Positions 3,001 to 6,000 of a stretch of DNA of 50,823 nucleotides are shown here, piece after piece; position 1 is the stretch's first letter; every line of letters starts with the position of its first letter. The stretch is from IMG/VR virus record IMGVR_UViG_2721755725_000006; one strand, given 5' to 3'. The DNA is from a virus (taxonomy: Duplodnaviria > Heunggongvirae > Uroviricota > Caudoviricetes). The position numbers are program-made.

Positions 3001-6000
3001 TCGTTTGCGAATTATCAGGTGCAGAACGACGGGCAAAAATACGCGCTGAGCCAGGCCAAATCCATAGCTGACGAACTGATGACCGGGTGCACGAATTTTG
3101 TGTTCAGCGGTAAAACCGGCACCGGGAAAAATCACCTTGCAGCGGCGATGGGTAACCGGCTGATGGCGAAGGGGCGCAGCGTGATTATCGTCACCGTGTC
3201 TGATGTCATGAGCGTGTTGCATGACAGCTACGACAACGGCAAATCCGGGGAAAAATTTTTACAGGAGCTTTGCAGTGTTGATTTGCTGGTCCTGGATGAA
3301 ATAGGCGTTCAGCGGGAGACGAAAAACGAGCAGGTGGTATTACACCAGATAATTGATCGCCGGACAGCATCACTGTGCAGTGTCGGGATGTTAACAAACC
3401 TGAATCATGCCGCAATGAGCACGCTTCTTGGTGAGAGGATTATGGACCGCATGACCATGAACGGTGGTCGGTGGGTGACGTTTAACTGGGATAGCTGGCG
3501 TCCAAATGTCAGCAATCAGAGGGTTGTGAAGTAATTTTTGTTGGAGGACGTTTTAATGGAAACTGTATTTGACGCACTGAAAGCACTGAAAAAAGCCTCT
3601 TCACAGGTAGTGGCATCGCGCCTTGGAATCAGCCGCGAAGATGCTGTCAACGAACTGTGGAAACTGAAGCGCCGTGGTGAAGCGGATAACAAGGGTTCGA
3701 TGTGGTGGCTGATTCAGGCTGGTGAAAGTGAACCAGTGTCACCGGTACCGAAAGTGACAGCGCAAATGCTGACTGAGGCGATTGAACATCATGGCCCACA
3801 AACGGCGGATGAGCTGGCCCTGATGTTCGGGATTACCTCCCGCCGGGCGAATTCATCACTGGCCATGGCAATCAGCAAAGGGCGTCTGATTCGCGTGAAT
3901 CAGGGCGGTAAATTTCGGTACTGCATACCGGGCGCTGATTTACCGGCAGAGCCGAAAGCCGCATCCATAGCGGAAACGGATGGTAAAGCCTTTCCTCAGC
4001 CAGCAGGTGTTGCGTTACCAGTCGGGGAAGCGGAAACACAGGAAGAAATAAAAACGGAAAGTGTGGCGGTCACAGTGCAGTCACAGCCGTCGTTCACCAG
4101 AAAGCATCCGGATGGTCTGATTTTACCATCGCTGCATGTGGCTAACCGCGAGCTGCGCCGGGCAAAAGGTCAGGTTCAGAAGTGGGAGCGAGTCTGCGCC
4201 GCGCTGCGGGAGCTGAACAAGTGCCGGGATATTCTCCGGGATATTACCGCCACCAGAGAACAGCAGCGGTGAGTGGGTGGAAGACGTGGTGCCGGGCGGA
4301 AATCATGATACTCCGGCAGTGTGCGGGAACGATGAAGGTAAAAAGCGTTGGCGCACTTATCGGACGAACTGAAGCGGCAGTGAGAACGAAGGCACGGGAG
4401 CTGGGCATCAGCATGATGTTACGTGGTGATTTTCACCCGTCGGCAAAATATTCTCAGCGTGATATTGAGCTGGCGCGGCAACTGCATCAGAGAGGCATGC
4501 AAAGAAGGGAAATTGCCAGAAAATTAGGCATGCCGCTGCGCATAGTGAATAACTACGTTTATTTCGACAGGAGGGTGTCTGCGTGAAAATCCTGTATCAG
4601 GATTACGGCCCGGTGGGGCAGGTGGTTATCAGCAGTACTGTAATGGAGTTTCGGAAGCATAACCGTGTGGTGGATGCTGTGCTGTTAACCTGTCCGGGGA
4701 TATCGGCGAGTCGTGCAGGTGTGTTTATTATGAAGACGAAATTATATGGCAGTAAGGCGTGGATAAAGAAGGCGTATCGTGTAGCGTTGCAGGAGGTTAA
4801 CAGTGAGTAAAATTAAAGAAATGCCGGTAGTTCGTGACGGATATGGCTACTGGACACATCCTGAATATGAAAAATTCTGTGATGGTCGGGAATATATTTC
4901 AACGGAAGAGTTTAACGCCTGGATGGAGGAAAATAATCTTCAATACGTCCTCTGCTTCAGAGATGAAGGATGTGCTGACCTTGATGCGTGTGATGCTGAT
5001 ATTTCTGCATGGGAACCGGAACGACCAGAGGGCGATGGCTGGTTTATTGGTTCCATTCATGATACGGAAGATGGCCCGGTTTGTGTCTGGTTGCGAAATA
5101 AGGCTGAAGCATAAAGGCGATAAACCAACTAACAACTAAATACTGAAGATTTAAATCAGAAACGATTTTTATTAAATCCTTAACCGGAGGGATTCCTGCA
5201 CCCTCAGAACATCAGGAGGCCGCCCGAAAGGGCGGTAAGAAATGAAACATTATTTAGAAAAAAATTACCCACGAAAGAGCAGAACAACAGAGTTTCTGTT
5301 TTTCATTCTGTTTATAGTGTTGATGATACCGATATCCCCGCTATTACTGGTCTGGATAATTGGAAGGACATTTGAACCAGTTATTGAGCTATATACCGAT
5401 GTGACATGGGAATCATTCAGCGCACTGCACAATAAAATTAATCCGTATAAGGAAAACTGATATGAGCACTATTACCAGAGAACGCGCGGAGATTAAATCA
5501 TACATCACAGGCTTCCTGAGCGACTCGGCGCACGATAACAAGTCTTCAGACAGCCTGCTGGCTAATGTGTTTCGTATCGCGCTGGCATCACTGGAAGCAG
5601 AGCCGATAGCAATGGTAGTGCCTGATGAAATGGATTTGCTTACCTGCCATCTCGACGGTGTAACTAAAACATATGCTGATGGCTGGAACGCCTGCCGCGT
5701 CGCCATGCTTCAGGCCGGAAACTTTCGGGAAAATAAGAATTCGTCAACCAACAATTTTCGGGAAATCTCGGAAACGTCAACCAGATCTCCGATAACTCTG
5801 GATGGCTGGATAAGCTGTACTGAGCGAATGCCTGAAAAGAGCCAGAACGTGCTTATTTCGATGAATATCGATAGCGAGGCTGGGCCATTAATATATTCCG
5901 CACGCTATCTCGGAGGCACGTTCCGGCGCGGAGGTATAGCAGTTAGTCCGGGTAATGATCTTAGGCAAGCAACCCACTGGATGTCGCTACCAGAACCGCC

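Follow-up and report, generated by a model that had tools for sequence, protein, structure and literature searches.

A hairpin between Shine-Dalgarno sequence and start codon as the probable core of a portable cassette in lambdoid prophages

The DNA analysed here, a stretch of 50,823 nucleotides (nt) from the IMG/VR virus record IMGVR_UViG_2721755725_000006 and referred to below as the window, carries at 5220-5235 a stable GNRA hairpin that lies between a strong Shine-Dalgarno (SD) sequence and the start codon of a 72-amino-acid (aa) DUF4014 gene. The same SD sequence and hairpin recur, at the right-hand end of a conserved block, in front of unrelated genes. We consider the hairpin to be probably the core of a portable split SD site in lambdoid prophages of Escherichia coli, Shigella, and Citrobacter, with the block serving as a homology patch as well.

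The probable split site and its conservation

In the window, the site and the genes behind it are made up of the following parts, with the SD sequence and its distance taken from a reading of 4700-6100:

5214-5219, + strand: SD sequence AGGAGG, 22 nt 5′ of the ATG
5220-5235, + strand: GNRA hairpin CCGCCC-GAAA-GGGCGG, with an optional seventh pair G5219.U5236 (sequence and fold)
5236-5241, + strand: single-stranded spacer UAAGAA, its UAA being an in-frame stop directly 5′ of the open reading frame (ORF)
5242-5460, + strand: DUF4014 ORF, 72 aa, ATG at 5242, single-pass membrane protein with a predicted N-in topology
5462-6019, + strand: DUF551 gene, starting 1 nt past the DUF4014 stop

An earlier note on this DNA had described the SD sequence, the hairpin, and the 22-nt distance to the ATG, and every coordinate was borne out on reading the sequence; the RNA folding prediction that it had called for also agreed with its estimate of the folded spacing. 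The hairpin is the dominant predicted structure of the region and is present in both the minimum free energy (MFE) and the centroid fold. With minimal flanks and the G5219.U5236 pair included, it has a predicted free energy of -15.5 kcal/mol, and its pairing probability is 1.0 in the native context of the window and 0.66-1.0 over all native contexts. The spacing between SD and AUG in the window is 22 nt in linear RNA and 6 nt in folded RNA. Counted from the central G of the SD sequence, the start lies at 26 nt, or at 10 nt without the 16-nt hairpin. In natural E. coli genes this distance is 7-15 nt, and 10 nt was optimal for a 6-nt SD sequence in a systematic reporter study (PMC3592434).

The arrangement of SD, hairpin, and ATG at 5214-5242 is the sole clean one of its kind in the window, which contains one GC-rich 6-base-pair (bp) GNRA hairpin against 0.12 expected from shuffles. 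Taken alone, this count is only suggestive, and the hairpin stands out from chance because it is conserved in hundreds of independent contexts. The U tract of an intrinsic terminator is absent after the hairpin on either strand, where UAAGAAAUG follows on the + strand and CCUCCUGAUG on the - strand. Two further perfect 6-bp hairpins with GNRA loops occur in the window, at 41217-41232 (+ strand) and at about 22435-22450 (- strand); the former, GCGTCA-GAAA-TGACGC with CTTTTTTATT behind it, resembles an intrinsic terminator.

The conserved block, called the cassette below, spans roughly 100 nt (about 5143-5237), from the consensus CTGAATAATTAAATTYAG to GGGCGG-TA. On the right, the block stops at the hairpin's 3′ end, and a few loci have other cargo or a convergent gene immediately behind it. 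Pattern scans of IMG/VR yielded 167 pooled copies in 71 sequence variants. Among complete E. coli genomes, 2341 of 5426 (43%) carry the block, at 3249 places. The GTDB species representatives with the block were E. coli, Shigella, and Citrobacter braakii only, besides chance matches in metagenome-assembled genomes (MAGs). Matches to the gapped pattern TCCTTAACCGGA...CACCCTCA in L132, L135, and L138 (Spirochaete MAGs) and in L134 and L142 lacked both SD and hairpin and were rejected as chance. The block was annotated in none of 40 sampled E. coli rows, where it overlapped no feature or merely the edge of a neighbouring gene. Rfam searched at permissive thresholds gave no family for the region and returned only the neighbouring sok RNA. 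A covariance model, R1, matched the + strand at 5165-5239 (100.5 bits, E = 8e-24), the sole full copy in the window.

For counts unconditioned on the SD sequence and the hairpin, 154 copies were gathered with an anchor that excluded both. GGAG was invariant in all 154 (AGGAGG in 126, AGGAGA in 19, CGGAGG in 3, and the rest singletons). The hairpin was canonical in 102 of them, and the remainder mostly carried C-to-U changes in the 5′ arm that kept G.U pairs (CCGTCC in 16, CCGCCT in 12), while the loop kept a GNRA sequence, GAAA or GGCA, in 152. Over the pooled copies, the hairpin was retained in 167 of 167. Among the 71 unique sequences, 25 had pair-keeping C-to-U changes in the 5′ arm against 5 with pair-breaking G-to-A changes in the 3′ arm, and one lineage (L146) had a compensatory change from G-C to A-U (CCACCC...GGGTGG) beside an uncompensated relative (L165).

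The genes behind the cassette belong to at least six protein families, which comprise a 60-aa MRKF protein (the commonest), DUF551-like and DUF4014 proteins, and proteins of 43, 174, and 158-196 aa. Upstream of it, 26 sequence families were found, combined in many ways with 6-7 downstream families. Unrelated downstream genes start 6, 7, 8, or 9 nt past the hairpin with no other SD sequence in the tail, and one family that starts 11 nt past the hairpin carries a GGAG of its own. Between loci whose neighbouring DUF4014 genes show a synonymous divergence (dS) of about 0.77, cassette identity is about 95%. It is located in early operons in the transcribed orientation, at variable positions (after the replication genes or in the ea region), and in phages that differ in immunity and early regions.

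Comparison of DUF4014 loci indicates that the hairpin does not belong to the DUF4014 gene. BLAST with the intergenic region alone recovered copies in front of genes other than DUF4014. In the Stx2 phages of the VT2-Sakai/933W type and in D6, pPE4, epsilon15, g341c, and ES18, the DUF4014 gene starts 1-2 nt past the upstream gene or overlaps it. In most of these phages, the gene has an ordinary SD sequence, with GGAG 4-6 nt before the start; the start sites are aaaGGAGagtgat-ATG/GTG in Sakai, D6, and pPE4 and GGGGGAGtga(a/g)-ATG in epsilon15 and ES18. Conservation in homologous loci, by which the earlier note would have judged the hairpin, is found in close loci that have the cassette and is absent from distant DUF4014 loci. 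Direct coupling with no intergenic region was seen for an MRKF homologue in a Klebsiella phage and for DUF4014 homologues in Salmonella phages, and since the distant homologues of the flanking genes are coupled in this way, deep covariation was unobtainable. The pPE4 record, L011 (PP818812, 'Actinobacillus phage vB_Apl-pPE4'), contains the E. coli cassette at 96% identity together with DUF4014 and hok genes typical of E. coli lambdoid phages, and its MRKF protein has 97% amino-acid identity; on these sequences, the Actinobacillus host stated for it looks doubtful.

These data suggest how the site would work. At 22 nt from the AUG, the AGGAGG on the long early mRNA would be too distant to act in linear RNA. 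Folding of the stable 6- to 7-bp GNRA hairpin would leave 6 nt of single strand between SD and AUG, so that a 30S subunit bound at the SD could set the AUG in the P site, as has been shown for genes 38 and 25 of phage T4. The T4 hairpins shorten the spacing from 22 to 5 nt in gene 38 and from 27 to 11 nt in gene 25, and mutations that destabilise them reduce initiation (PMC3014915). In the window, the cassette would give the DUF4014 gene independent initiation, and the DUF551 gene, which as noted earlier starts only 1 nt past the DUF4014 stop, would probably be translationally coupled to it. The earlier note had taken the fold for translational control of this particular gene. The conserved geometry and the T4 precedent favour initiation that depends on folding, but control specific to one gene is at odds with the same SD and hairpin preceding at least six unrelated families.

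Besides the split site, the cassette has stop codons at its left end, followed by an A/U-rich tract and by an orphan SD sequence that an anti-SD-like CCCUC would mask. Because the same stretch of about 100 nt lies beside many different genes, it may also serve as a homology patch for swaps of accessory genes and so promote recombination; exchange by Red or RecA has been documented on short homologies, and by Red on diverged ones as well (PMC3945230). The cassette may likewise buffer expression against its context. Joining these functions, we tentatively put forward a natural plug-and-play intercistronic cassette, which would provide a standard translation level for any small gene recombined behind it and a homology patch for shuffling; we regard this wider proposal as possible but doubtful.

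Anatomy of the cassette

To the left of the functional SD sequence, the cassette in the window contains the following elements:

5143-5159, + strand: left end CTGAAGATTTAAATCAG, a degenerate copy of the consensus (alignments)
5160-5174, + strand: A/U-rich spacer AAACGATTTTTATTA, kept A/T-rich with variable sequence, no promoter match
5175-5194, + strand: alternative hairpin AAUCCUU-AACCGG-AGGGAUU, holding the near-invariant TCCTTAACCGGA (MFE fold of a 146-nt context and alifold consensus)
5186-5191, + strand: first SD-like sequence GGAGGG, an 'orphan' with no canonical start codon behind it in the window
5187-5205, + strand: hairpin 1, in which GAGGG (5187-5191) pairs with the anti-SD-like CCCUC (5201-5205) across a 9-nt loop (fold)

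Within 12 nt, the left-end consensus has a stop codon in each of the three frames. It is inside this motif, 25-32 nt before TCCTTAAC, that the upstream ORF closes in about half of the unique contexts; the upstream gene of the window stops earlier, at 5112-5114. A small upstream ORF closing at the UAA after the hairpin was rejected, having no canonical start. Since A/U-rich tracts upstream of an SD sequence raise translation in E. coli reporters (PMC3592434), the tract at 5160-5174 may have a role in translation.

Hairpin 1 is paired in 98.9% of the alignment cells and has no informative variation; the change C5202U in copies of the mEp460 type keeps a G.U pair, and 3 of the 71 unique sequences have a stem broken by G5189U. 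In the longer-context MFE fold and in the alifold consensus, CCCUC pairs instead with the functional SD, and AAUCCUU pairs with AGGGAUU. The variants neither prove nor disprove the alternative hairpin at 5175-5194, and a switch between the alternative folds is speculation.

The two halves of the cassette are separated in phage ArgO145 (KY914478; L008:1690-2003), in which a 70-aa gene starting MLNTQKAINAEKYNEW lies between them (L008:1755-1967). Its ATG is 7 nt after the first GGAGG, which it uses as its SD, and its end is 4 nt before the second AGGAGG. Accordingly, the full block consists of two gene junctions joined by a 21-nt filler, which contains the CCCUC able to pair with the orphan first SD. 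A short form also exists, in which stop-TGTC-AGGAGG-hairpin-6/7 nt-ATG makes up a 34-nt junction ahead of two different genes.

Alternative readings, the DUF4014 product, and its neighbourhood

Several observations weigh against the hairpin being the core of a split SD site. Covariation in the alignment was equal to that in shuffles (97% of cells paired, 25 wobble-keeping changes, 15 cells unpaired, and 1 compensated pair), and the alifold consensus had no compensatory pairs; the high similarity of the copies (89-100%) and their restriction to a single bacterial group account for covariation not rising above shuffles. The asymmetry between C-to-U and G-to-A changes counts related sequences, and strand-biased deamination could be partly behind it. 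Recombination and hitch-hiking alone could have kept the conservation. In longer contexts, where CCCUC is able to pair with it, the SD is only 23-56% unpaired. The cassette is also found without a start codon behind it, in L136 and L139 (Shigella flexneri, E. coli), L141 (Citrobacter braakii), and L173. An ORF beginning MTSINIFMTVADFKRPKLELPNG lies 61 nt past the cassette end in L136 and L139, its product looking QueH-like, and a convergent gene follows the cassette in L141 and L173. Because of these start-less copies and the one copy before a gene with its own SD, translation cannot be the sole reason for the persistence of the cassette. Finally, the direction of the effect, raising rather than lowering translation, is one that we infer from T4.

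Some of these points would suit a hairpin that limits expression or serves mRNA processing or stability and does not bridge the spacing. As a limiting element, it would hold the strong SD out of range so that little product of the downstream accessory gene is made. As a stability element, the stem would insulate the cistron, block re-initiation from upstream, or protect a processed 5′ or 3′ end, and the alternative pairings would add a switch. Besides the pairing of CCCUC with the SD in the longer-context folds and the retention of the cassette where a start codon is absent, such a role would account for the 3′ arm GGCGGU, which is weakly SD-like, lies 5 nt from the AUG, and would be hidden by folding, and for one lineage in which C5202U and G5219A occur together and the 5202:5219 pair is kept. 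However, this CUCUC/AGGAGA combination is a single haplotype, and each change also occurs alone (in L180 and in the 19 AGGAGA copies with CCCUC). The CCCUC:GGAG helix has merely 4 bp, GGAG is invariant, and a barrier or stability element would not need the 6- to 9-nt spacing kept after the hairpin across unrelated genes. We therefore think a limiting or protective hairpin unlikely. A reading of the block as a recombination linker or scar without RNA function appears less probable still. In that case, two junctions would have been fused after gene loss and homogenised by Red/RecA exchange, the SD and hairpin having been inherited from the ribosome-binding site (RBS) of one original gene, that of the 60-aa MRKF protein. 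The ArgO145 gene between the block halves, the heavily shuffled upstream and downstream families, the single host group, and a block whose similarity between loci greatly exceeds that of synonymous sites in the flanking genes would all be expected, given the documented Red exchange noted above. Neutral evolution, however, would not hold GGAG, the loop, or the 25:5 bias towards pair-keeping changes, and the genes behind the block have no other SD. Such an origin is compatible with a split SD site and does not exclude it.

Two further readings seem very improbable. The GNRA hairpin might be a site for a phage or host RNA-binding protein, either an N-like antiterminator of the boxB type or a translational repressor. 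GCCC-GAAA-GGGC is like the lambda boxB stem with its GNRA-like loop, UCCUUAAC, 35 nt upstream, bears a weak resemblance to boxA, and the element lies in early operons in the transcribed orientation. Against this, the loop is a tetraloop and that of boxB a pentaloop, AGGAGG and not boxA is directly 5′, no Rfam family matched, and the copies are far from pL/pR, at variable positions, and in phages of differing immunity and early regions. The other reading was that of the earlier note, in which the locus is an AT-rich moron, an autonomous unit whose small membrane product acts as a toxin or in exclusion and is made under the control of gene-specific RNA folding. The AT-richness that it reported is real but only moderate, with a GC content of 35.6% in the ORF and 42.5% in the intergenic region against a window mean of 50.4%; the ORF at 5242-5460 is in the lowest 10% or so of 219-nt windows. 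Like a moron, the gene combines deviant composition (35.6% vs 50.4% GC) with presence or absence between related phages, and the gene behind the cassette varies between otherwise similar loci. However, a consensus scan of 4500-6500 and of two other cassette variants found no sigma-70-like promoter, although a weak or non-sigma-70 promoter would escape such a scan, and no intrinsic terminator was found by scanning the three region variants, the gap between DUF4014 and DUF551 being 1 nt. Since neither promoter nor terminator was found and the flanking genes are co-oriented in one operon, the locus is not a classical moron. The leader is common to unrelated genes, and the DUF4014 gene occurs elsewhere without it. 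The single hydrophobic helix would be in keeping with a toxin or superinfection-exclusion protein, but no defence or toxin family matched, and the conserved motifs of the product argue for a different role.

The product is a full-length member of the Pfam family DUF4014 (PF13198; residues 1-72 of 72, E = 1e-24, 87.2 bits against a cut-off of 23.2) and matches PHROG 1832 (E = 1e-44). Its 122 homologues are mostly 72 aa long, and the ratio of nonsynonymous to synonymous polymorphism (pN/pS) of the gene is about 0.2-0.5, which supports its reading as a real small membrane protein under purifying selection. One hydrophobic helix, as the earlier note had seen, spans about residues 18-41, and the N-terminus has a charge of +4. 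The motifs YPRxSR and LHNKxNPYxE are conserved, cytoplasmic and periplasmic, respectively. Conservation on both sides of the membrane suggests a specific partner rather than membrane damage. Searches of PADLOC, NCBIfam, and PDB sequences returned no match to the 72-aa protein, nor did the HOK_GEF profile, which matches the neighbouring gene at 6253 instead. With low confidence, we propose that the protein may be a small protein of the inner membrane that modulates a host membrane enzyme, and not a toxin.

This would be in line with a proposal made for phage epsilon15, for which two acetyltransferase inhibitors were suggested but, according to a review, never investigated (PMC9558356). The 72-aa protein shares 50% identity across 72 aa and both motifs with epsilon15 gp46. 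Overall, epsilon15 gp46 and g341c gp23 are 72-aa DUF4014 proteins with 47-50% identity, the same helix, and the same conserved end motifs, and they differ in that translation of their genes is coupled to that of the upstream gene, with no hairpin present. The public records give the family three conflicting labels: 'released from the phage upon host infection', 'sugar/O-polysaccharide acetyltransferase inhibitor', which traces to epsilon15 gp46, and, once, 'transposase'. No experimental source could be traced for any of the three, and nothing visible supports the first of them, which is the PHROG label. A literature search found no paper mentioning either 'DUF4014' or the hairpin sequence.

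The locus is part of a Qin-like lambdoid prophage beside rspAB in an O157-type E. coli, where it is flanked by the replication genes on one side and by hok/sok, DUF968, and rusA on the other, all of these genes sharing one strand. The hok/sok type I toxin-antitoxin locus at 6141-6465 is separate from the 72-aa gene and contains sok (Rfam, 113.5 bits at 6141-6315) and the Hok/Gef ORF at 6253-6465 (PF01848, E = 1e-22). At 6585-6929 the prophage encodes a 114-aa protein that looks secreted; in the matching O157 genome it is labelled a stress tolerance protein of the NirD/YgiW/YdeI family, and its gene is possibly cargo. In E. coli O157:H7 PV15-279 (L001:2344-3761), the best-matching O157 genome, IS1203 takes the place of the upstream replication-gene region of the window and the adjacent genes are truncated, which indicates that the prophage in the window is a more intact version.

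Significance and comparison with known systems

To our knowledge, hairpin-bridged RBSs are known from only a few T4 genes, and gene finders and RBS calculators ignore such sites. The kind of mechanism proposed here is thus known from T4, and what is new is a widespread, unannotated, gene-independent cassette at the mosaic junctions of E. coli prophages. If it functions as in T4, it would be by far the most widespread natural example, an unannotated element in thousands of E. coli, Stx-converting phages included. If the plug-and-play proposal holds, in 43% of complete E. coli genomes a single unannotated RNA/DNA element would underlie expression as well as mosaic evolution, translation signals would be tied to the long-standing question of how single genes are exchanged precisely at lambdoid gene borders, and a compact natural part for context-independent expression would be available. 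For annotation, the sequence comparisons suggest that the DUF4014 gene should be treated as an ordinary accessory gene of an early operon, neither moron nor toxin, and that the database labels should be regarded as unverified.

Four known systems resemble the cassette in part. The boxB element of the lambda nut site is also found on early phage mRNA and has a short G+C stem (GCCC...GGGC) with a purine-rich loop of the GNRA type. The cassette differs from the nut site in having a tetraloop and not a pentaloop, in having no adjacent boxA, in not being promoter-proximal, and in its position directly between SD and start codon. The 'boundary' or linker sequences at the module junctions of lambdoid phages, which reportedly go back to Susskind and Botstein's modular theory and to Clark et al. 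(2001) on HK620, are said to be short conserved intergenic sequences that border exchangeable genes in the nin and ea regions and were proposed to guide homologous exchange. In the cassette, a defined internal anatomy points to a translational role; among the papers on lambdoid phages returned by a literature search, the term 'boundary sequences' did not occur. Synthetic insulated RBSs and bicistronic junctions combine a self-contained stop and RBS with structured flanks and are meant to make expression independent of the neighbouring sequence. The cassette, by comparison, is natural, and its use ahead of unrelated genes suggests a similar insulation.

The closest parallel is with T4 genes 38 and 25, which share with the cassette a strong SD 22-27 nt from the AUG, a stable hairpin lying wholly between the two, and a position at an intercistronic junction. 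The linear spacing of 22 nt in gene 38 is that of the window, and the folded spacings of 5-11 nt in T4 include the 6 nt of the window. Like the hairpin of the cassette, those of T4 are conserved among close relatives only (PMC3014915). The cassette is unrelated to them in sequence and in phage group, being carried by temperate lambdoid prophages, and it has a GNRA tetraloop. In contrast to the T4 sites, it is portable, standing before at least six gene families in thousands of genomes, and it carries in addition stops in three frames and an orphan SD with its anti-SD mimic.

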